DNA from: an uncultured Chloroflexia bacterium | GTDB taxonomy: Bacteria > Chloroflexota > Limnocylindria > Limnocylindrales > CSP1-4 | Direction: 5' to 3' | Assembly: GCA_963745405.1 (NCBI GenBank) | Contig: CAVUWY010000002.1 | Coordinates: 2,005,013-2,069,012 of the forward strand | DNA: 64,000 bases | Shown: positions 2,695 to 25,217 of the stretch, piece by piece | How positions within the stretch are numbered: position 1 is the stretch's first letter | Layout: each line of letters begins with the position of its first letter | The notes under the pieces: generated by a model | What the model saw: only the letters and a program-made list of their open reading frames with translations | The model's database searches: none | Told to the model about the DNA's origin: nothing | Position numbers and translations under genes: made by a program

Positions 2695-3090
2695 ATGACC
2701 AGGGTCCTCCTCGTCCACCACGACATCGACCTTGCCGACCAGGAGGCCGACGCGCTGCGTCGGCGCGGCTACGAGGTCCAGCAGTGCATGGGACCGATCG
2801 GAGCGCAGTGCCCCGTCCTGGCCGGACATCGCTGCGAGATGGCCGAGAAGGCCGACGTCCTCGTCTATGACGCCTGGGTGACCGGCGAACCGGAAGGGGC
2901 ACAGCGGCTGATCGAAGGCCTGCGGGAGACCCACCCGGACGTGCCCGTGGTGCTCATGGCGACCGGGATGGAGCCGGACTGGATCGAGCTCGCCGGCGAG
3001 CATCGGATCACGCCGCTCGTGGGGCAGCCGACGGGTGCCCGCATCGCCGACGCGATCGAAGAGGCGATCGACGCCGTCGCCGACCACTGA
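2695..3090 (+). CDS. Stand-alone receiver-like (pseudo-receiver) domain protein
   Basis: CheY-like beta/alpha pattern (VLLVHHD..., VLVYDAW, VVLMATG). The conserved Lys position reads QP, and a Cys-rich insert is present. SD GGGAG lies upstream. Confidence 0.5.
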   Translation: MTRVLLVHHDIDLADQEADALRRRGYEVQQCMGPIGAQCPVLAGHRCEMAEKADVLVYDAWVTGEPEGAQRLIEGLRETHPDVPVVLMATGMEPDWIELAGEHRITPLVGQPTGARIADAIEEAIDAVADH

Positions 3091-3126
3091 GCCCGACGAC
3101 CGAGGGCTCGCCGTCGCGTGCGCAGG

Positions 3127-4608
3127 TCAGATGACCTGGGCGAGCCGCTCCGCGAGTGCCTCCGCGATCATGATCGCGATGACGTGGGGGAACCCGGAGG
3201 GCGGCTCCGGGATGATCGAAGCGTCGACGACCGCGAGCCGGTCGACGCCGTGGACTCGACCGAGCGCGTCGACGACGGCATCGCGATCCGGTGACGGTCC
3301 CATCGCGCAGGTCCCGACGACGTGGGGGATCGAATAGGCGTTCTCGACGACGCGTCGGCGCCAGCCGGCCTCGCCGTGTGGACTCGACGGCGGCGCTCCG
3401 GTGCAGAGGCCGCGGATCTCGGGACGCCGCGCGAGTTCCAGGCCGCGGCGATATCCCTCGACGAGGCGATCGACGTCGGCCGGCTCGCGCAGGCCCGGCA
3501 GCTCGATCCGTGGCGGATCAGTCGGATCGGCCGATCGGAGGCGGACCGATCCACGGGAGATCGGCCGGAGGAGGATCGGATCGAGGTAGAACGATGGATC
3601 GTCGGCGGACGGATCGCTGGTCCAGAACATAAGGTCGGCCCCGCGAGCGGGCGCCGCGGAGCTGCGGAACGTCGTGATCGAGTGCAGGATCGGGCCCTTC
3701 GTCGCCCTGCCGCTCCAGCCCGAGGGCAGGTCGACGCCCGGATGGTCGGCGAGGTTCGCGCCGACGCCGGGCAGGTCCACCTGCGGCTCGATGCCGAGCG
3801 GGCGGAGGTCGTCCGCCGGCCCGATGCCGGACCGCATGAGGATCGAGGGACTGCCGTACGTCCCGGCCGCCAGGATCACCCAGCCGGCCCGGATCCTCGT
3901 CCCGTCGACGAGCTCGACGCCGGTCGCGCGGTCGCCATCGAGCGTCACCCGCGCGACGACCGAGTCGGCCCTGATGGTGAGCTTCGGCCAGCGCCGATCG
4001 AGTGGCAGATAGGCATCGGCGGTCGTCGCTCGCACGCCGTCGCGTGAGCTCATCGGCATCCGCCCCGTGCCGATCGCATCCGGGGCGTTCAGATCCTCGA
4101 CGCGCGGGTAGCCGAGCCCGTCGAAGGCAGCCAGCGCCGCGGCGTGGATCTCGGAGACCGGATGGTCGGAGTAACGGGTGATGGGGATCGGTCCGCTGTT
4201 CCCGTGCCACGGGTCGTCGCCGAACTCCGCGTCGGACTCGAGGCGCCGAAAGGCCGGCAGGACATCGTCGAAGCCCCAGCCGGCGTTGCCCCTGGCCGCC
4301 CAGGCATCGAAGTCCGCCGCCGCGCCGCGGACGCCGAAGCGCGTCAGCCACGACGTCCCGCCGAGGAGTCGGCCGCGGCGGAGTTGCCGGGTCGCCCCGG
4401 TCGCGTCGGGCTCCGACTCGAACCCCCAGTCCGGGATCGATGGCAGGTTCCAGCCGTCCCGAAGCGCCGCTGGAGTGACCTCCCGCAGGTCCGGTCCCGC
4501 CTCGAGCAGCAGGACGCGTCGCTCGCCCCACTCCGCGAATCGCCGGGCGAGCACGCAGCCGGACGCACCGCCGCCGACGATCGCGATGTCGAAGTCGTCA
4601 CGTTCCAT
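3127..4608 (-). CDS. GMC-family FAD oxidoreductase (choline-dehydrogenase-like)
   Basis: N-terminal DFDIAIVGGGASGCVLARRFAE Rossmann motif and full-length GMC architecture (493 aa). Confidence 0.85.
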   Translation of the reverse strand: MERDDFDIAIVGGGASGCVLARRFAEWGERRVLLLEAGPDLREVTPAALRDGWNLPSIPDWGFESEPDATGATRQLRRGRLLGGTSWLTRFGVRGAAADFDAWAARGNAGWGFDDVLPAFRRLESDAEFGDDPWHGNSGPIPITRYSDHPVSEIHAAALAAFDGLGYPRVEDLNAPDAIGTGRMPMSSRDGVRATTADAYLPLDRRWPKLTIRADSVVARVTLDGDRATGVELVDGTRIRAGWVILAAGTYGSPSILMRSGIGPADDLRPLGIEPQVDLPGVGANLADHPGVDLPSGWSGRATKGPILHSITTFRSSAAPARGADLMFWTSDPSADDPSFYLDPILLRPISRGSVRLRSADPTDPPRIELPGLREPADVDRLVEGYRRGLELARRPEIRGLCTGAPPSSPHGEAGWRRRVVENAYSIPHVVGTCAMGPSPDRDAVVDALGRVHGVDRLAVVDASIIPEPPSGFPHVIAIMIAEALAERLAQVI

Positions 4609-4635
4609 CCGGACCTCCGATGGCGCGAGCGGCCC

Positions 4636-5304
4636 TCAGGCGCGGCCCCTCGTGGTGGCGACATCCGCCTCGTTGCCGAAGGCGTCGGCGAGTGTCCACC
4701 ACGTCGGCGCGAAGTCGTCCCGCACCAGCCGACCCCCGGCGGCGAGGGCCGCCGCGACGCGGGCTTCGCCCTGCTCTTCCGGCACCCAGACCGCGATGTG
4801 GATCGCGCCCCCGCCGTCCGGACGAGGCTCGCGCATCGTCTCGAACCAGAACGGCGCTCCACGATAGTGCGGGTCGACGAGGTCCTCGTCCGGGCTGTCG
4901 GGGCGCGGCTCGTAGCCGAGCACGGCCCGCCAGAACGGCATGACCGCCGCGATGTCGAGCGCACCGGGGATGATGAGCAGGCTCTGGACGGCGGACGGGT
5001 CGGCGGTCAGGCCCTGGTCGCGGGCCACGGCCGAGATCCGTCGGGCGAGCTCGACGTCGCGCGTGCTCGGCCCGTACCAGTCGTCGGTGACAGTCAGGAG
5101 GCGGACGGTGACGCCGTCGTGCCGCAGGTCGATATCGGGATGGTGGGGATCCAGGTCGGGCAACTCGCTGATCGCGAGGGCGAGCCGCGCCCCTTGGGCG
5201 AACGACCGCGTGCGGAAATACGCGCAGGCGCCGTCGCCGACGAGGCGCCAGTCCTCGGTGCCCTCGGCTTCGTGGAATTGTCGCGGGGTGATCCCTTCCG
5301 TCAT
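4636..5304 (-). CDS. Pterin-4a-carbinolamine-dehydratase-like domain fused to a VOC (glyoxalase-fold) domain
   Basis: Start MTEGITPRQF at 5304. An HHPDIDLRHDGVTVRL PCD-type motif is followed by a glyoxalase-like C-terminal half. The upstream part of ORF 4636..6261 is antisense to the next gene. Confidence 0.6.
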   Translation of the reverse strand: MTEGITPRQFHEAEGTEDWRLVGDGACAYFRTRSFAQGARLALAISELPDLDPHHPDIDLRHDGVTVRLLTVTDDWYGPSTRDVELARRISAVARDQGLTADPSAVQSLLIIPGALDIAAVMPFWRAVLGYEPRPDSPDEDLVDPHYRGAPFWFETMREPRPDGGGAIHIAVWVPEEQGEARVAAALAAGGRLVRDDFAPTWWTLADAFGNEADVATTRGRA

Positions 5305-17553: not shown

Positions 17554-17629
17554 GCGGGAGTAGCTCAGTCGGTAGAGCGTCAGCCTTCCAAGCTGAATGT
17601 CGCGAGTTCGAACCTCGTCTCCCGCTCCA
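17554..17629 (+). tRNA. tRNA-Gly (anticodon UCC), CCA encoded
   Basis: Hand-folded cloverleaf: acceptor GCGGGAG/CTCCCGC, D stem GCTC/GAGC, anticodon stem TCAGC/GCTGA, loop CTTCCAA, T arm GCGAG-TTCGAAC-CTCGT. 76 nt. Confidence 0.9.
17584..17629 (+). repeat. attL core (3' 46 nt of tRNA-Gly)
   Basis: CCTTCCAAGCTGAATGTCGCGAGTTCGAACCTCGTCTCCCGCTCCA. Matches 22211-22256 at 45/46 positions (C17613 versus T22240). Confidence 0.8.
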
Positions 17630-17745
17630 ACCCCTCTTTTCGTGCTCGGATCGAGCGATAGCCTGATCGTCGAGCCGATTCGCTGAATCGCCAAAACAGT
17701 GCCACAGCGACAAACTGGACAGATTCGATTTAGACTCCGCGGGCT

Positions 17746-18657
17746 ATGCCTACCACCGCCCCGTCGGTCACGGGACCCCTCGTCGCCGACCTCCTTCCCT
17801 CATTCCGTCGTCACCTCCGGGCCGAGAATCGCTCGCCCGGGACCGAGCGTGTCTACTGCGACACGGTCAACGACTTTGATCGGTTCCTCGTCCGCAGCGG
17901 GATGCCGCGGACGGCCCGCTCCCTCCGCCGGGAGCATGTCGAGGCGTTCATCGAGGCGCGCCTGGCGACGGTCGCCCCGGCGACGGCCAACCGGGAATAC
18001 CGCTCCCTACAGGCGTTCTTCAAGTGGGCCGACGGCGAGGACGAACTCGACGCCTCGCCGATGGCCCGGATGCGCCCGCCACGCGTCCCCGAGAAGCCCG
18101 TCCCGATCGTCGCCGATGACGAACTCGCGCGACTCCTCCGGGCATGCGAGGGCAAGACCTACGTCGATTTCCGGGACACCGCGATCATCCGGCTGTTCGC
18201 GTCCTCCGGCGCTCGTCTCTCCGAGATCGCGGGCCTGACCACCGACGATGTCGATTTCGATGACGAGGTAATCCGGGTCATCGGCAAGGGCAATCGGCCA
18301 CGTGCCGTCCCGTTTGGGCGCAAGGCCGGACGGGCGCTCGATCGCTACCTCCGCCTCCGCGGTCGGCGGCGTGACGCTGCCCGCTCCGAACTCTGGCTCG
18401 GCCTTGCCGGGCCGATGACGCCGTCCGGGATTTACCAGGTTATCCGGGACCGCTGCCGACTGGCCGGGATCGACCACGTCAACCCCCACCGGTTCCGCCA
18501 CACGTACGCCCACAAGAAGCTCGCGGGCGGCATGCAGGAGAACGACCTCATGCGTCTGACGGGCTGGCGGTCGCGGTCGATGGTGGGCCGGTATGCGGCC
18601 TCGACCGCCGATGAACGGGCGAGGGCCGCCTTTCGCAAGCTCGACGACGAGGTATGA
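17746..18657 (+). CDS. Tyrosine recombinase / phage-type integrase
   Basis: SAM-like N-domain plus catalytic R...HRFRHT...GRY motifs. 303 aa. Confidence 0.9.
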   Translation: MPTTAPSVTGPLVADLLPSFRRHLRAENRSPGTERVYCDTVNDFDRFLVRSGMPRTARSLRREHVEAFIEARLATVAPATANREYRSLQAFFKWADGEDELDASPMARMRPPRVPEKPVPIVADDELARLLRACEGKTYVDFRDTAIIRLFASSGARLSEIAGLTTDDVDFDDEVIRVIGKGNRPRAVPFGRKAGRALDRYLRLRGRRRDAARSELWLGLAGPMTPSGIYQVIRDRCRLAGIDHVNPHRFRHTYAHKKLAGGMQENDLMRLTGWRSRSMVGRYAASTADERARAAFRKLDDEV

Positions 18658-19244
18658 GCGGTCATCGCAGTCCGCCTGAGAGGGACGACCGGCCCCCCGA
18701 CGTCGATCCCGACAGCGACCCGCCGTACGGCAACATCGAGACGCTCATCGATCTGGACCCCACCGGGTTGGCCCACTTGCTCGACGCGGTGGCTCGGTTC
18801 AGCAATGACCAGGACCTCACCGCGGTGGTCGACACCCTTGAAGGGGCTCGACCGATCCGCACGCCGCCAGGCGTACGCCTTGGAGCCGTCCGCCCAGTCC
18901 CGCCGGACGTGGAACGCGACGACCGTCCCGGCAGCGTCACCCTCACCCACCCGACCGCCGGTCCGTCGATCGCGAACCTCAGCTCGGGCCAGTGGCACGA
19001 GCGGCCAGGCGACCCAGACCGCGACCTCGTCGAGCGATGGGCCCCCCTCATCGCCGCCAGGCTCGGGGGGCGGGGGGTGCCGTGTGCCGTGGAGGGGTGC
19101 GGGGCCGATGCTGCCGTCATGCTGACGGGGCGGGTGGCGATCTGCCGACCCCACCTCGATACCCCGGTCGGGGCGGCACTGCCCAAGCGGGGCGGGCTGC
19201 GGGCTGCCGCCGCGTCCGTCACCGCCGCGCTCGTGCGCGCCTAG
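18654..19244 (+). CDS. Hypothetical protein translationally coupled to the integrase
   Basis: ATGA overlap with the int stop. GC3-rich. Cys/His cluster CAVEGC...CRPH. No family recognised. Confidence 0.45.
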   Translation: MSGHRSPPERDDRPPDVDPDSDPPYGNIETLIDLDPTGLAHLLDAVARFSNDQDLTAVVDTLEGARPIRTPPGVRLGAVRPVPPDVERDDRPGSVTLTHPTAGPSIANLSSGQWHERPGDPDRDLVERWAPLIAARLGGRGVPCAVEGCGADAAVMLTGRVAICRPHLDTPVGAALPKRGGLRAAAASVTAALVRA

Positions 19245-19307: not shown

Positions 19308-19763
19308 ATGAGGCCACCGATGATCCGCACTGCCGTTCTGATGATCGTTGCTCTGGTCGCCATGGCGGCCTGTGCGACTCAGTCCGGCGCACCAACGGCC
19401 ACAGCGACTGCAGTCAGGTCCCCCGTGGCCTCAACCTCGCCGAACGCCACCGGATCACCGCTGCCATCCGGTGGGATCTCCGAAGCGCGGGCAATCGACC
19501 TCGCTCGTAACCACAGTTCGCTCGCGACATTCGTATCCGCATCGGCAGGTTTCTTCCGCGATCTGAACATCGACCCCCACATCGGGCCCGGTTATCCCGT
19601 CAGCGGGGATCAGACCGTGTGGGCCGTCACGTTCACGGGTGAAGAGACCATCTGTGGTCCGGACGGGACATGCTTGTCCCCGCGTCCGGGCATGACCACC
19701 GTCTATCTCGACTATCTCACCGGGGACTACCTCAGCGCCGATGGGGCAGCGCCTGCGCCTTGA
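19308..19763 (+). CDS. Putative lipoprotein (islet cargo)
   Basis: Signal peptide with AMAAC lipobox. Lower-GC codons than the flanks. Confidence 0.5.
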   Translation: MRPPMIRTAVLMIVALVAMAACATQSGAPTATATAVRSPVASTSPNATGSPLPSGGISEARAIDLARNHSSLATFVSASAGFFRDLNIDPHIGPGYPVSGDQTVWAVTFTGEETICGPDGTCLSPRPGMTTVYLDYLTGDYLSADGAAPAP

Positions 19764-19953
19764 GCACGTTCCTGGTACCGCTCTCCGCGACCGTCGACAG
19801 GCGTTTCTTGCCGGGTCGATGGTGCGCGCCCGGACCTAACGGCGCGAAATGGTCGAGCACGAGGCGATATTCGGCGATTTTTCAGGCACGGATGGAGCGT
19901 GGCAAGACCTGTCGGCGGAATCTCTCCCCGGGTGGCGTGGAGGCGGTGACGGC

Positions 19954-20328
19954 GTGACGGGGGCTGAGCGGACCCGCCGCTGGCGGGCCAGAAAAAGAGC
20001 GGAATCCGCTGATTCGACCCGAATAAACCTCCATCTCCTCGGGCCCGCCGTGATAATGCCGGGGGTCCGCGGCGGGCCCGTGGCGAGAGGCGTCGAGGCG
20101 ACGATCCGGGCCCTCCGCCGGGCCGATCGCCTCGACGCCATCGACGCCGCGATCGTCGCGACTGCCCGGACCACCGGCGCTGCCCTCGACGCGGCTCCGG
20201 TCGCCTACCTGGCGGCGATCGCCCGCGTCCACCTGGCCGTCCTCGCCGTCCTCACCGGACGGGAGGCTCCGGCCAGCGACGAACTCGATCGCTTCCTCGC
20301 CTCGCTCCGGGAGGCGACGCCGGGCTAG
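19954..20328 (+). CDS. Hypothetical protein with basic N-terminus (AERTRRWRARKRA)
   Basis: In-frame GTG 19954 within ORF 19849..20328. Start uncertain. Confidence 0.35.
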   Translation: MTGAERTRRWRARKRAESADSTRINLHLLGPAVIMPGVRGGPVARGVEATIRALRRADRLDAIDAAIVATARTTGAALDAAPVAYLAAIARVHLAVLAVLTGREAPASDELDRFLASLREATPG

Positions 20329-20807
20329 GAGTCCTCCACGCGGAGCCGCTCGTTGACGATCGAGCGGGTGTGCCGGAGCCGACGGGCCATGACCTCGTCG
20401 CCGCGAAGCTCCGCCGACCGCGCCGCCAGGGCGAGCGCGCGATTGACCTCCTGCGTCTCGCGGACCTGCTGCAGCCGGGCAGCGGTCCGAAGGCCGAATG
20501 ACTCGGCCTCCCGAGCGCCGTGCTGATGCCGGTCGAGGTAGTCGGCGACGTCGTCCGAACGGTAGCGACGATGGCCCGCCGGTCCGACCACGTGGTAGGG
20601 GATGAGATCGGGTGACCATCGCCGGAGGGCGTTCTTGTGGACTCCGATAGCGGCGGCGGCCTCGCCGATCGAGAGGTCGCCGCGGAGGTCACCGACCCGG
20701 ATATGCGCCGCCACGGTTCCAGAGTGTATGTCGGCGCTGAGGCCGCGGAGCCGTGAGATTTCACGCGTAGACTCGTCGCACAGACGAGGCGCGAGCCGGT
20801 CGCCCAT
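20325..20807 (-). CDS. MerR/excisionase-type HTH DNA-binding protein (candidate Xis or repressor)
   Basis: LSIGEAAAAIGVHKNALRRW...GHRRYRSDDVADYL matches the excisionase-family HTH pattern. Alternative GTG start at 20714. Confidence 0.7.
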   Translation of the reverse strand: MGDRLAPRLCDESTREISRLRGLSADIHSGTVAAHIRVGDLRGDLSIGEAAAAIGVHKNALRRWSPDLIPYHVVGPAGHRRYRSDDVADYLDRHQHGAREAESFGLRTAARLQQVRETQEVNRALALAARSAELRGDEVMARRLRHTRSIVNERLRVEDS

Positions 20808-20855
20808 TCCTCGACCGGCCCGCTCGTCGCGACCTTGGACCACCACGAGGAAGGC

Positions 20856-20969
20856 ATGAACTGTCGCAACTGCCACGAGGCCATCAAGGTCAACAAGTCC
20901 GGGAAGCTGGTCCACGAGGCGACCGGGTCGATCTACTGCCAGAACAGCGGCAAGAAAGCCGAGCGCTAG
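20856..20969 (+). CDS. 37-aa CxxC micro-ORF (MNCRNCHEAIKVNKSGKLVHEATGSIYCQNSGKKAER)
   Basis: Below the ORF-track cutoff and found by reading. GAGG lies 5 nt upstream of the ATG. 34/36 codons end in G/C. It is divergent from the HTH gene and ends 35 nt upstream of the 351-aa ORF. Confidence 0.45.
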   Translation: MNCRNCHEAIKVNKSGKLVHEATGSIYCQNSGKKAER

Positions 20970-21004
20970 ACCGAGCCGATCAAGCCGTAGACGGAGAGTG
21001 ATCT

Positions 21005-22060
21005 TTGGGCCGTCGCCGACGTCACCGTGCGTTCTTCCTCATCGAGGGCCTTGGCGTCCCGGGTCCGTGGCGGATCGGTGTGACGACGATCCGGTCAGCA
21101 GCGTGGATGCGCGCCCACCTCGCCAGCGTCGCCGCCGCCTTTCCCGGGCACCTCCGTGACGATGTATGGAATCACGCTTTGACGGACGAGCCCGCGACGT
21201 CCGTCATCGAAGTGCCGTACGTGGGGACGTTCGCCCAGGCCACTGACGCGCTCCCTGAGCTAGTCGAGGTGGCGCGAGATGCCGTCGCCATCCTGCGACT
21301 CTTCCAGCGATCGCATTTCACGATGGACATGGAGTTTCAGGCGTTCGGGCTGCCGGATGATCGGACGAACTCCGTGTCTCACTACTGGTTGACGGATTCA
21401 TCGGGCTTTAAGGCAGCGGGAACCGGCTGGGCTGGTGGCCCCGCGCCCTTCACATTTCGCCCTGGGCATCAACGCGCGTTCTATGCCGATGCTCGGTTCC
21501 GTTATCTAGGTGAGGCACTGTCAGCGCCGGACGTGTCTCGGACGGAATGGCAACGGCAGCTCCTCCGAGCGGTGCGGTCGATGCACGTCGCACAGGCGAG
21601 TCCGCGGCCATCAAGCAAGGTCATCGCCTACGCGGTGGCGCTGGAGGCGGCGTTCGGCGACGGGCCGGGTTTCAAGCGCAAGAAGGGCGATGGAAGCGAG
21701 GGGTTCCGTATCGCCCGACGGGCCGCCATGGTCAGCTGTCGAGGCGAAGGCATCCCGCGACACGGATCGGGCCGTCCTGCGTGCGACATTCTCCTAGCGA
21801 CGAGTGATGACGACCTGCGGAAGCGCCTAGCCGACCACGGCGGTCGATGCTCAGCCTATGAGAACGCCAGGGGAACCACCTTCGCGCGCAACGCCGCGCT
21901 CCACGAGGCCGAGGATGGGTTCGACGAGTCGGACATCCGAATGATGCGAACGCGGACCGATGACGCGATCCTTTCGGCTATCGAGTGGGTCATCGAAGCG
22001 GGGGCCGAGAACATCGCCGACCTCGACGAGGCCATGGACTCGGTCCCGAGACCGATTTAG
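21005..22060 (+). CDS. Orphan 351-aa protein with two R-x4-6-H (HEPN-like) motifs
   Basis: TTG start 6 nt after GGAGAG (alternative starts GTG 21080, ATG 21107). RAVRSMH at 21566-21586 and RNAALH at 21887-21904. Lower GC than the flanks. Confidence 0.6.
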   Translation: MGRRRRHRAFFLIEGLGVPGPWRIGVTTIRSAAWMRAHLASVAAAFPGHLRDDVWNHALTDEPATSVIEVPYVGTFAQATDALPELVEVARDAVAILRLFQRSHFTMDMEFQAFGLPDDRTNSVSHYWLTDSSGFKAAGTGWAGGPAPFTFRPGHQRAFYADARFRYLGEALSAPDVSRTEWQRQLLRAVRSMHVAQASPRPSSKVIAYAVALEAAFGDGPGFKRKKGDGSEGFRIARRAAMVSCRGEGIPRHGSGRPACDILLATSDDDLRKRLADHGGRCSAYENARGTTFARNAALHEAEDGFDESDIRMMRTRTDDAILSAIEWVIEAGAENIADLDEAMDSVPRPI

Positions 22061-22210
22061 GCCGGATTACGGTCGTACCATTCCCTCGCGGTTAGGCATA
22101 GCCGCCGGGGCTCGCGGCCACTGGTCGCGGGCCCGCTGATTCCGAGCGACAAACTGGACAAATTCCGGGTGTGTCGCCACGCTCGCGGGCATAGCAGAGC
22201 GACACCGTGA

Positions 22211-22256
<46 letters not shown>

Positions 22257-22373
22257 GTTCCCCTCCGCGTCGAAGACGACCTCGATCGAGGCGCGCCGAG
22301 CGCGATCCCGAACGGCGGGCGGATGCGCGGGGACTATCATCGCCGCCTCGCACCTCGGGAAGGGAGGACGACG

Positions 22374-22991
22374 GTGACTGACTACAACGAGCAGTTCGAC
22401 AACACCGAGGCCTCGTACGACGAGACCGATGCGGAACGGCTGCGGCAGGAGGCGAAGGCCAGCCTCGACAGCGCCAAGAGCCAGTTCGACGCTGTATCGA
22501 CCGACCCGCAGCGCGGTCATCCCGAGGACGCGAGCCGCCACCTGCAAGGTGGGATGGACGACCTCCAGGAGGGGATGGACGCCGGCGTCCGGGCCGACCA
22601 GCTCGACCAGGCGGCGGGCCTCCACGCCGCGTCGACGGAGACGTTCCACGAACGCGACGACGCTCGAGACGCCGCCGGGCGGGAGCACATCGCGGCCGAG
22701 GGCGCCGACATGGTCCTCGACTTCACCGACATGTCGGAGGCGGACAAGACGAAGTGGCTCGCCGAGAAGGGTGCTCGTGAAGGCGCGGCCCAGGCCCTCG
22801 ACGATCGGGACGACGCGCTCACCGAGCGGGGGATCGACCAGCGCCATGAGGCGAGCCAGCTCGAGGACGAGGCTCGCTCCGGGCTGCCCGGCCACTCCTG
22901 GGAGGAAGACAAGTACCGGGGGACCCCGGGTGGACCGGCGACCGATCCGACGGCGGGGACGCCGTCCGACGACGGGACGCCGCTGGAGTAG
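22374..22991 (+). CDS. Hypothetical acidic, helical protein
   Basis: GTG 22374 after GGGAAGGGAGG. Asp/Glu-rich. No domain recognised. Confidence 0.45.
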   Translation: MTDYNEQFDNTEASYDETDAERLRQEAKASLDSAKSQFDAVSTDPQRGHPEDASRHLQGGMDDLQEGMDAGVRADQLDQAAGLHAASTETFHERDDARDAAGREHIAAEGADMVLDFTDMSEADKTKWLAEKGAREGAAQALDDRDDALTERGIDQRHEASQLEDEARSGLPGHSWEEDKYRGTPGGPATDPTAGTPSDDGTPLE

Positions 22992-23058: not shown

Positions 23059-24813
23059 ATGCACGGATCGAAGGCCGGCGACGACTCAGCCGCGGCGTCA
23101 CGGCTCGCGCACGATCCCGACGCGCTCGTCGAGACGATCCGCGCCTCCGTCATCGGCGATGACGAGGCGGTCGCGGGCCCGTTCGGCGTGCGGCGGGTCA
23201 CCTACGCCGACTACACGGCATCGGGCCGCTCGCTGACCTTCATCGAGGACTACATCCGCGACGCGGTCCTGCCGCTTTACGCGAACACCCACACCGAGTC
23301 GTCGGGGACCGGGCTCCAGACGACCCGCTTCCGCGAGGAGGCCCGAGAGACGATCCGCCGGTCGGTCGGCGGAAGCCCCGACCACGCCGTCATCTTCACC
23401 GGCTCGGGCTCCACATCGGCCGTCAACAAGCTCGTCCTGGCGATGGGCCTGCGCATCCCGGCCGAGCTCGACGAGCGCTACGGCCTGTCCGAGCGGATCC
23501 CCGAGGGGGAGCGGCCGGTCGTCTTCGTCGGGCCGTTCGAGCATCACAGCAACGAGCTGCCGTGGCGCGAGTCGATCGCCGACGTCGTCGTCATCCACGA
23601 GGACGCCGACGGCCACATCGATCGGGTCCACCTGGCCGAGGAGTTGCGGCGCTACGCCGACCGGCCACTCCGCATCGGCAGCTTCACCGCCGCCTCGAAC
23701 GTGACCGGCATCGTCTCCGACACGTACGGCATCGCCCGCCTCCTCCACGAGCACGGGGCGCTGTCGTTCTGGGACTTCGCGGCCGCGGCGCCGTACGTCG
23801 AGATCGAGATGGACCCGCCGGGCGACCCGCTCGCCTACAAGGACGCGATCTTCATCTCGCCCCACAAGTTCATCGGCGGACCGGGCACGCCGGGCGTCCT
23901 CGTCGCCCGTCGCGAGCTGTTCCGGAACCGGGTCCCGACGCTCCCCGGCGGCGGCACGGTCGCGTACGTGAACCCGACCGAGCACGTCTACCTCGACGAC
24001 ATCGAGCATCGCGAGGAGGGCGGCACGCCGGCCATCGTCGAATCGATCCGGGCCGGTCTCGTGTTCGGCTCAAGGAGGCCGTCGGCGTCGAGGCCATCCG
24101 GGATCGCGAGGAGTCGTTCATCCGGCGGGCCATCGAGCGCTGGGACGCCCATCCCGACATCGAGATCCTCGGCAATCACTCCGCCGAACGGCTGTCGATC
24201 GTGAGCTTCATCATCCGCCACGACGGCCGCTACCTCCACCACAACCTCGTCGTGGCGCTGCTCAACGACCTGTTCGGCATCCAGTCGCGCGGCGGCTGCT
24301 CGTGCGCCGGTCCATACGGCCATCGCCTGCTCGGCATCGACATCGAGACCTCGCACGAGTTCGAGCGCGAGATCTCGCGCGGCTGCGAGGGCATCAAGCC
24401 CGGCTGGGTCCGGGTCAACTTCAACTACTTCATCAGCGAGACGGTCTTCGAGTTCATCCTCGACGCGGTCGAGCTCATCGCCAGCGACGGCTGGCGGCTC
24501 ATGCCGCAGTACGCGCTTCGAGCCGGCGACGGGCCTGTGGCGCCATGCCGGCGTGGCGGTCGAGGCGCCGCTGTCGCTCCACGACATCCGCTACGACGAG
24601 GGCCGGATGACGTACGCGGCCCACCGCCACCGAGAGCCCGAATCGCGGCTCGCCGACTACCTGGCCGAGGCGCGCAGGCTTGTCACCGCCTCGCCGCAGC
24701 CGTTGGCCGCGGCGGTCGAGGGCTCGGCCTCACTCGCGGTCGGCCCCGACTTCGAATCGCTGCGCTGGTTCTGGCTGCCGCACGAGGTCGCGGCGCGGGT
24801 GGCCTCGGCCTAG
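23059..24813 (+). pseudogene. Class-V aminotransferase / cysteine-desulfurase-like PLP enzyme disrupted by two frameshifts
   Basis: The conserved sequence runs in frame 1 to ~24066, in frame 0 from ~24069 to ~24512, then in frame 1 from 24514 to the stop at 24813. Read in the original frame, a stop occurs at 24204. Confidence 0.7.
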
Positions 24814-25217
24814 ATCTCGGAGCCGCAGGCCCTGCACTTCGTCGCCTCGACCGCGTTCGGCTCCCTGCAGAAGGGGCAGTCCTTGTGGGGCGCCTCTTCC
24901 TCCTCGCGGATGAACATCTTGCCGAGCATGAAGGCGACGAAGGCGACGATCACGAACACGATGAGCGTGTTGATGAAGGCGCCCCACAGGATCGCGACCT
25001 CGGGGACCGGCTTGCCGCTCGAGTCGATCGAGGCCGACTTGAGGACGATCTTGAGGTCGGAGAAGTCCACCCCGCCGAGGATGTAGCCGATCGGCGGCAT
25101 GATGATGCCGTTGACGAGCGAGTTGACGACCGTCCCGAGGGCGGCCCCGATGATGACGCCGATGGCCAGGGCGAGTGCGTTCGACTTGACCAGGAACCCT
25201 CGGAACTCGGACAGCAT
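24810..25217 (-). CDS. mscL: Large-conductance mechanosensitive channel with C-terminal zinc-ribbon tail
   Basis: MLSEFRGFL...AIGVIIGAA...IMPPIG MscL signature. The tail is CPFC-x11-CRAC. Confidence 0.85.
   Translation of the reverse strand: MLSEFRGFLVKSNALALAIGVIIGAALGTVVNSLVNGIIMPPIGYILGGVDFSDLKIVLKSASIDSSGKPVPEVAILWGAFINTLIVFVIVAFVAFMLGKMFIREEEEAPHKDCPFCREPNAVEATKCRACGSEI

Follow-up and report, generated by a model that had tools for sequence, protein, structure and literature searches.

We analyzed a stretch of 64,000 nt with a G+C content of 70% from an uncultured Chloroflexia bacterium (contig CAVUWY010000002.1; this whole stretch is called the window below), focusing on a gene for a 351-aa protein (21005-22060, plus strand) that is carried by a small islet at a tRNA-Gly gene. 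As judged from profile searches, this protein belongs to a real, sizeable, and previously unannotated family, and on balance we favor the view that the gene encodes a stand-alone two-domain HEPN effector of the ribonuclease type. What is new is the family, while the superfamily and the kind of system are familiar. An earlier note on the same DNA had drawn attention to this gene and to a 37-aa micro-ORF (open reading frame, ORF) upstream of it. The coordinates and peptides of both ORFs were correct, as were the positions given for two motifs of the large protein, RNAALH (residues 295-300, 21887-21904) and RAVRSMH (residues 188-194, 21566-21586).

The 351-aa protein and its family

The family emerged when 1.84 billion cluster representatives were searched exhaustively with HMMER. 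At E-value thresholds of 1e-3, 1e-10, and 1e-30, the numbers of representatives retrieved were 220, 154, and 60, respectively. The majority are 330-380 aa long and align end to end, and their distribution is patchy, with a low copy number. The protein is therefore not the orphan it had been taken for. The related statement that it cannot be assigned to any family holds for the curated collections only. Pfam contains no family matching the 351-aa protein, its two halves, its closest homologue, or any of the 91 full-length family members on which all conservation counts, the profile, and the structural model described below are based. NCBIfam and PHROGs likewise gave no match for the protein family, and scanning the 91 members with PADLOC yielded two weak matches to RTasHEPN only. 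Because none of these four collections covers the family, the defense-annotation pipelines now in use are blind to about 220 clusters. A word-indexed search with the single sequence retrieved one relative (34% identity) and, with the 91-sequence profile, four proteins, one of which was new. By tblastn, the family had no match in phages and one marginal match in plasmids, leading to the Deinococcus HEPN protein discussed below. When genome and viral contigs were scanned with patterns derived from the family, either no match was obtained or the alignment was too diverse for use.

The gene starts with TTG and has the sequence GGAGAG 6 nt upstream. Because the first 34 residues can be aligned with the N-terminal stretch conserved in the homologues (V-H-F-x-V-x-x-L-x-V-P-x-x-W-R-V-G), we regard the start at 21005 as correct and the 317-aa call in the database as truncated.

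An AlphaFold2 model based on the alignment of the 91 members reached a predicted local distance difference test score (pLDDT) of 94.1 and a predicted template modelling score (pTM) of 0.92; with 2 sequences only, the model was unusable (pLDDT 43.5). The model consists of two domains. The N-terminal one (residues 1-175, 21005-21529) has an alpha/beta fold and contains conserved residues at G25 (86/91), L97 (83/91), and in the stretch F114-G115-L116 (82/91, 89/91, and 82/91, respectively). It has no match in Pfam, in the PDB, or by Foldseek, and we propose that it is a sensor, regulatory, or oligomerization domain. The C-terminal domain (residues 176-351, 21530-22057) is helical and HEPN-like according to the secondary structure of the model and the profile comparisons described below. 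The HEPN core is built from two alpha-hairpins, frequently with inserts between helices 2 and 3, and has an acidic residue upstream in helix 2; its motif, R-x4-6-H with a polar residue (N, D, or H) following the arginine, is located at the end of helix 3 (Anantharaman et al. 2013, PMC3710099). In the model, helices 1 (181-198) and 2 (202-217) pack into a tight hairpin, and E214 is part of helix 2. They are followed by a 65-residue insert (218-282) that comprises one helix, a small beta knuckle, and several conserved Cys and His positions. Helix 3 (283-300) ends exactly at R295-H300 and is connected to helix 4 (308-332) by a loop (301-307). Thus, the predicted order of helices agrees with the canonical HEPN layout, as do the placement of the motif where helix 3 ends, of an acidic residue within helix 2, and of the insert.

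The residues expected to be functional are conserved throughout the family. R295 is present in 89 and H300 in 88 of the 91 members, and position 296 is mostly polar (N in 61, S in 17, D in 5, and H in 4), so that R[NSDH]xxxH is found at the equivalent place in nearly all full-length members. We therefore regard R295-N-A-A-L-H300 (21887-21904, plus strand) as the predicted catalytic HEPN motif. The acidic residue E214 (codon 21644-21646, plus strand) is part of an ALEA motif and is conserved in 89/91 members.

The occurrence of an RNxxxH motif alone has a P of about 0.017 in shuffled sequences. The less specific pattern R-x4-6-H was found 7 times in the 351-aa protein compared to 3.5 matches expected from shuffles, and counting motifs is therefore without weight on its own. 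This also affects the second motif, R188-AVRSM-H194 (21566-21586, plus strand), which had been put forward as a possible sign of a tandem-HEPN arrangement. Position 194 is S, N, or D in most of the 91 members (26, 21, and 18, respectively) and position 188 is L or T in 23 members each. With neither residue conserved and the motif count at chance level, we rejected the second HEPN motif as a chance match. A tandem, Cas13-like organization was rejected as well, because R188 and H194 are not conserved and the model contains a single HEPN-like helical core.

The insert between helices 2 and 3 carries a putative zinc site formed by C245, H253, C260, and C282 (21737-21850, plus strand). C260 and C282 are almost invariant (89/91 and 90/91). 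Position 245 is C in 86 and H in 4 members, and position 253 is H in 36 and C in 24. Because Cys and His replace each other at two of the four positions, the tetrad is best explained by metal ligands rather than by disulfides, and a zinc site is likely. C245, C260, and C282, all conserved, are the only cysteines of the 351-aa protein.

A comparison of the 91-sequence profile with all PDB sequences retrieved entries for ApeA only, namely Ec2ApeA (E 4e-4) and Ec3ApeA (0.08), in two collinear stretches. The alignment places A-l-E-a-L-l-g-d of the family, including E214, on A-I-E-S-L-I-P-D-E of Ec2ApeA and R-n-a-a-v-H on R502-N-L-I-V-H507, within R-T-R-N-L-I-V-H. R295 thereby falls on R502, the catalytic arginine that carries the mutation in the catalytic-dead structure of Ec2ApeA. 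When the search was reversed with phmmer, starting from the C-terminus of ApeA, 11 members of the family ranked higher than any of the 7372 decoy ORFs, with individual E-values between 0.6 and 16. ApeA is a single-protein abortive-infection system that acts as a tRNA anticodon nuclease and is activated through a ligand pocket between its N-terminal and HEPN domains (structures 9HXB-9HXJ; bioRxiv 10.64898/2026.01.26.701840). In both proteins, the HEPN core, predicted in the case of the 351-aa protein, carries insertions, and some ApeA variants bind zinc. In contrast to the family-wide Cys/His tetrad, the zinc sites of ApeA are not conserved. The architectures also differ: ApeA has about 583 aa in three mainly helical domains (residues 1-198, 199-309, and 335-583 in Ec2ApeA), compared to 351 aa with an alpha/beta N-terminal domain here, and neither the window protein nor any of the 91 members matches the HEPN_Apea model of Pfam or the ApeA model of PADLOC. 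A further shared trait is carriage on mobile DNA, as the Ec2ApeA allele that we retrieved by back-translation is located in a P2-like prophage. It lies between baseplate and tail-morphogenesis genes (Ec2ApeA-like protein WP_072664300.1 of E. coli JNQH497; NZ_CP091925.1, locus L110, 1523-3274) and is labeled "hypothetical protein" in RefSeq.

The second link leads to WP_322474880.1, a protein encoded on a plasmid of Deinococcus sp. AB2017081 and named "HEPN domain-containing protein" in RefSeq. An hhalign comparison of this protein with the family gave a probability of 95.2% (E 2.7e-8), and the whole C-terminal domain was aligned, including the motifs RTxWQ, ALExLF, and R-S-R-V-A-H. With 246 aa, the Deinococcus protein is smaller; the Cys/His insert is missing from it, and its N-terminal part is different. 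Because it has no match to a Pfam or NCBIfam model itself, its name is supportive, but not a decisive or independent proof of the fold. On the plasmid (NZ_CP140099.1, locus L009, 5264-11179), the gene of this relative is translationally coupled to one for a 162-aa hypothetical protein. A DEAD/DEAH helicase gene is found on one side and an operon for multiubiquitin, E2, a ThiF-like E1, and DUF6527 on the other, a setting that resembles a defense island.

Structural comparisons pointed in the same direction. Among the top 50 weak whole-chain Foldseek matches in the PDB, 7 were HEPN chains (E 0.4-3): Csm6 (6TUG at rank 1, and 8JBC), AF_0298-type proteins (2HSB and 4NQF), HepT (5YEP and 7AE6), and Las1 (7Y16). 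Target-normalized template modelling (TM) scores were 0.40-0.50 overall and about 0.5 for the minimal HEPN domains 2HSB and 4NQF. HepT/MntA toxins (5YEP, 7AE6/7AE8) and AF_0298-type proteins (2HSB, 4NQF) thus gave the best target-normalized TM scores, and they have the four-helix HEPN core predicted for the window protein, together with an R-x4-H motif. They differ from it by lacking the extra 175-aa N-terminal domain and the 65-residue Cys/His insert, and their Foldseek E-values are all >1. Taken together, residues 176-351 very probably represent a catalytic HEPN domain. For R295-H300, the HEPN-type signature recognized in the earlier note was borne out by family-wide conservation, by its expected structural place, and by its alignment with the catalytic arginine of ApeA.

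Genomic company and possible function of the family

No conserved neighbor was found across the homologue loci. In three loci (L010-L012), the homologue alone fills a 1.6-kb segment that lies between a tRNA-Pro(GGG) gene and a degenerate duplicate of the 3' half of this tRNA gene; in L010, this mini-islet (2990-4668) contains the homologue as its sole gene and no integrase. At another locus (L018), the homologue follows a tRNA-Val(CAC) gene, and a 19-nt copy of the tRNA 3' end is found 6.6 kb away (segment 6647-13323). The same segment encodes Pnkp (PNKP_ligase 1.9e-178), Hen1 (4e-109), and a 291-aa ORF, placing a putative RNase beside RNA repair genes. The 291-aa ORF contains the stretches "ALESIL" and "RVRLFH", but was rejected as another HEPN protein, as it has no support from hhalign or the PDB.

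Other loci contain defense genes. The homologue was found together with a type IIG restriction-modification protein (1.8e-232) and a ThsB-like TIR protein (1.9e-10) in L002, with type I restriction-modification, methyltransferases, and PDC-S11 in L006 (Parcubacteria), and with an AriAB-like (PARIS-like) ATPase (1.9e-47), a DUF4011 helicase, and a ParB-methyltransferase in L008. Further neighbors are a NERD protein (L108), a 71-aa integrase remnant (L107), and a weak match to SocA_Panacea (L015). Three of the loci with informative long flanks are classic defense islands. The mobile-islet and defense setting that had been suggested for the gene is therefore supported both by the tRNA-Gly gene, direct repeat, and integrase in the window, and by the homologues in tRNA islets and defense neighborhoods.

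In one locus (L013, GCA_036257225.1, 9016-12846), copies of a repeat of about 80 nt are found after the homologue and after each small downstream gene, starting at about 9016, 11064, 11529, 12136, and 12742, a layout like that of a cassette array. A tRNA fragment suspected at the start of contig L001 was rejected, since neither ARAGORN nor Rfam finds anything there.

In prokaryotic immunity, HEPN RNases recur as effectors, with Cas13, Csm6, PrrC, ApeA, DARNA, and HepT as examples. By analogy with PrrC, RNase L, Csm6, HepT, and ApeA, two copies of the protein would dimerize via their HEPN domains and thereby form a composite, metal-independent active site. In this site, His300 would activate the 2'-OH, while Arg295 and Asn296 would stabilize the transition state. 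The enzyme would then cut RNA, most plausibly tRNA anticodon loops or mRNA, and leave 2',3'-cyclic phosphate ends. The Cys/His tetrad would hold a structural zinc ion, and the N-terminal alpha/beta domain would silence the enzyme until it receives a signal, for example a ligand or a cue of infection. Once active, the enzyme would arrest growth, which could either shield the population from phage or penalize loss of, or competition with, the islet.

A more far-reaching proposal, which we put forward tentatively and consider somewhat less probable than not, is that the family represents an undescribed single-protein immune or toxin family that uses an ApeA-like logic on another scaffold, namely a new alpha/beta sensor combined with a zinc-stapled HEPN RNase. 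In soil Chloroflexota, further soil bacteria of high GC content, and Parcubacteria (candidate phyla radiation), it would travel in minimal tRNA islets and defense islands as their only or principal cargo, and it would cut tRNA or mRNA upon an infection signal. If this is true, the presence of Pnkp and Hen1 beside one member would reflect a pairing of RNA damage and repair. As a compact single gene with an N-terminal domain and a family-wide Cys/His site, the system could uncover a new gating mechanism for a HEPN nuclease, and the family offers a handle on defense in soil Chloroflexota and bacteria of the candidate phyla radiation.

The same genomic context could also fit a real HEPN RNase that has no anti-phage role, but serves as an addiction or exclusion factor of the islet, as a weapon in the competition between elements, or as an RNA-processing enzyme. 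Minimal tRNA islets often carry this gene and no other cargo, it is paired with Pnkp/Hen1 RNA repair at one locus, and some loci lie beside housekeeping genes. We nevertheless consider such a role unlikely, given the classic defense islands at three of the loci with informative long flanks, an abortive-infection protein as the closest solved relative, and a patchy, low-copy distribution that is unlike that of a housekeeping enzyme.

The 37-aa micro-ORF and points against the proposed stand-alone HEPN effector

The 37-aa micro-ORF (20856-20969, plus strand) is located upstream of the 351-aa ORF on the same strand, with a spacing of 35 nt. Its product, MNCRNCHEAIKVNKSGKLVHEATGSIYCQNSGKKAER, shows the pattern CxxCH...H...C, and the gene is preceded by the Shine-Dalgarno sequence GAGGAAGG. 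The G+C content by codon position is 0.45/0.40/0.95, with G or C at 36 of the 38 third positions, which has a P of about 2e-4 even at a G+C content of 70%. The good Shine-Dalgarno sequence and the very high third-position G+C content ascribed to the micro-ORF were thus confirmed. Because of this codon periodicity, and because no long antisense ORF extends across its 3' half, the micro-ORF is probably translated. It is not unannotated, as had been thought, since the protein collection already includes it as a predicted gene (P0153).

A search of 5.8 billion clusters returned no homologue of the micro-ORF, only the self-match, and tblastn gave no match in any homologue locus. Of the homologue loci, 16 extend 200 nt or more upstream of the gene; all 16 lack the micro-ORF, and 15 of them lack any small CxxC ORF at this place. 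By these sequence comparisons, the micro-ORF is unique to this genome. Matches to LIM, cytochrome c-type CxxCH, and phrog_3025 in the Pfam and PHROGs libraries were rejected because all of them were sub-threshold.

These results bear directly on the idea of a two-gene toxin-antitoxin or partner-dependent module, in which the 37-aa Cys/His micro-protein neutralizes or activates the HEPN protein. Such a module would be in agreement with the close spacing on the same strand, with no terminator in between, and with the strong coding periodicity of the micro-ORF. Moreover, Cys-rich neighbors do occur at a few loci: an unrelated 74-aa ORF with the pattern C..H..CPVC is located upstream of the homologue in L005, and a 356-359-aa protein with four CxxC pairs is encoded directly after it in L006 (9032-10111) and L008 (9053-10123), overlapping or 24 nt apart. 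The latter protein shows 37% identity between the two loci, has no Pfam or PADLOC family, and may be a partner specific to the low-GC branch of the family. However, the Cys-rich neighbors are not homologous to one another, and most family members look stand-alone. Because the pair is not conserved, the toxin-antitoxin reading involving the micro-ORF fails, and we consider a two-gene module quite improbable, contrary to the earlier note. As for the findings that this note had named as evidence against its own reading, a micro-ORF that is not conserved and homologues without it were indeed observed; a predicted structure without a HEPN-like fold and a lack of conservation of the R and H residues were not.

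Other types of partner were not found either. A type III toxin-antitoxin system (AbiF/ToxIN-like, with an RNA antitoxin) was rejected, since there is no tandem array near 20800-22200 and no Rfam family other than tRNA. With regard to HEPN-MNT systems, Pfam detects no nucleotidyltransferase antitoxin of the NTP_transf_2 type among the seven ORFs of the islet. The absence of a conserved partner gene across loci, of a tandem-repeat RNA, and of an Rfam element is in favor of a stand-alone effector. In this scheme, the 351-aa gene would be the cargo of the islet, probably on one transcript with the 37-aa ORF, starting from the region divergent to the helix-turn-helix (HTH) gene described below, and the micro-ORF would be a lineage-specific addition that is not part of the system.

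A number of observations weigh against a stand-alone HEPN effector with a function in defense. Apart from the two weak RTasHEPN matches, no curated HEPN model of Pfam, NCBIfam, or PADLOC matches any of the 91 members at E≤0.1, and a whole-chain Foldseek search of the PDB and of BFVD (viral) gave nothing at E<0.1. The link to ApeA hangs on the broad profile, as it is missed by an 18-sequence clade profile, and hhalign against the single Ec2ApeA sequence resulted in a probability of 19.8% (E 1.2e-3) for the first stretch only. The sequence context of E214, A-L-E-A-L-L-G-D, is not the usual one, since the acidic residue in helix 2 of HEPN proteins is typically part of E-x3-[KR] (PMC3710099). In helix 1, codon 185 (21557-21559) encodes Q in the window protein as opposed to R in 83/91 members; with this 91%-conserved arginine replaced, the present copy may be altered or attenuated. 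The homologue in L018 has an in-frame stop at the position of C245. Finally, the role in defense rests on the neighborhood in a handful of loci, while several loci are short or lie beside housekeeping genes.

Some of these points could also be explained if the protein were no HEPN protein at all, but a zinc-binding helical protein of unrelated fold and function that acquired R-N-x3-H by convergence, as the missing curated matches, the lack of a significant Foldseek match, and the marginal, profile-dependent ApeA match would allow; yet the motif, the polar second residue, the upstream acidic residue, the position at the helix end, and the insert between helices 2 and 3 all coincide, and three independent searches, each of them weak, all lead to HEPN proteins exclusively, which makes this the least likely of the three alternatives.

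The islet at the tRNA-Gly gene

A 46-nt direct repeat with 1 mismatch (17584-17629 and 22211-22256) marks the two ends of the islet, and the distance between the two copies is 4.6 kb. The first copy, attL, corresponds to the 3' 46 nt of a tRNA-Gly gene with the anticodon TCC (17554-17629, plus strand; identified by ARAGORN and by Rfam with 73 bits), the integration target. The second copy, attR (22211-22256, plus strand), represents a duplicated tRNA-Gly 3' end. An uninterrupted version of the site is found in a Chloroflexota metagenome-assembled genome (MAG; locus L049), where a tRNA-Gly(TCC) gene, 91% identical to that of the window, directly adjoins the orthologous gene for a 656-aa aminotransferase, and the islet is missing. 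This uninterrupted site, the direct repeat, and the integrase support an insertion and, at the sequence level, an integrated element. The flanking aminotransferase-like protein has its best relatives (80-87% identity) in MAGs of Chloroflexi and Candidatus Limnocylindrales (loci L025-L056), which makes a soil Chloroflexota the probable host and speaks against an actinobacterium. The islet resembles other tRNA-targeting integrative islets by its tRNA 3'-end duplication, the integrase gene beside attL, an Xis/MerR-like HTH protein, and internal repeats of the arm type. It differs from them by its size of only 4.6 kb and the lack of genes for replication, transfer, and virions, and its mobility is a prediction.

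A 21-nt repeat, AGCGACAAACTGGACAGATTC, is located inside the islet near attL (17706-17726, plus strand), and a second copy with 95% identity lies just inside attR (22145-22165, plus strand). The repeat reads AGCGACAAACTGGACA(G/A)ATTC, and a third copy with 76% identity is found at 20275-20295. These repeats may be arm-type binding sites of the integrase.

The first gene of the islet encodes this integrase, a tyrosine recombinase of 303 aa (17746-18657, plus strand; Pfam Phage_integrase 6.3e-28, Phage_int_SAM_4 5.5e-10). Its stop codon is overlapped by a 196-aa ORF without assigned function (18654-19244, plus strand; third-position G+C content 0.85), which has no match in Pfam, PADLOC, NCBIfam, or PHROGs. 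It is followed on the same strand by a 151-aa lipoprotein-like ORF (19308-19763), which has weak matches of the signal-peptide and lipoprotein type only, and by a 159-aa ORF without assigned function (19849-20328; third-position G+C content 0.80), for which all matches were sub-threshold (PIN 0.013).

The excisionase/MerR-like HTH protein is encoded on the minus strand (20325-20807; HTH_17 5.7e-5, MerR 3e-4), and all its Pfam matches are under the curated cut-offs. It also matches PHROG 66, "excisionase and transcriptional regulator" (1e-5). Its start is probably M37 of its 196-aa ORF, with a Shine-Dalgarno sequence of the GGAG type preceding the ATG at 20807. As previously noted, this gene is divergent from the micro-ORF and the 351-aa ORF, and the region is less GC-rich than its surroundings, with 0.64-0.66 over 20750-22500 versus about 0.70-0.74 in the flanks.

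A GC-rich hairpin, GGGGCTCGCGGCC...GGTCGCGGGCCC (22107-22136, plus strand), is located 47 nt past the stop codon of the 351-aa ORF. It is an arm of the inverted repeat I3, and the region 22055-22215 has an RNA fold z-score of -2.4. A canonical terminator was not found at this hairpin nor between the micro-ORF and the 351-aa ORF. The hairpin has no U-tract and may be either a terminator or a protein-binding site near attR.

Downstream of the islet, the aminotransferase class-V-like gene (about 23059-25030) contains a change of frame at 24060-24100, directly past ...IRAGLVF. At this site, the window reads TTCGGCTCAAGGAG compared to TTCCAGTTGAAGGAC in a relative, and the L049 orthologue is one intact ORF of 656 aa. 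The change is either a real -1 frameshift, making the gene a pseudogene, or an assembly error.

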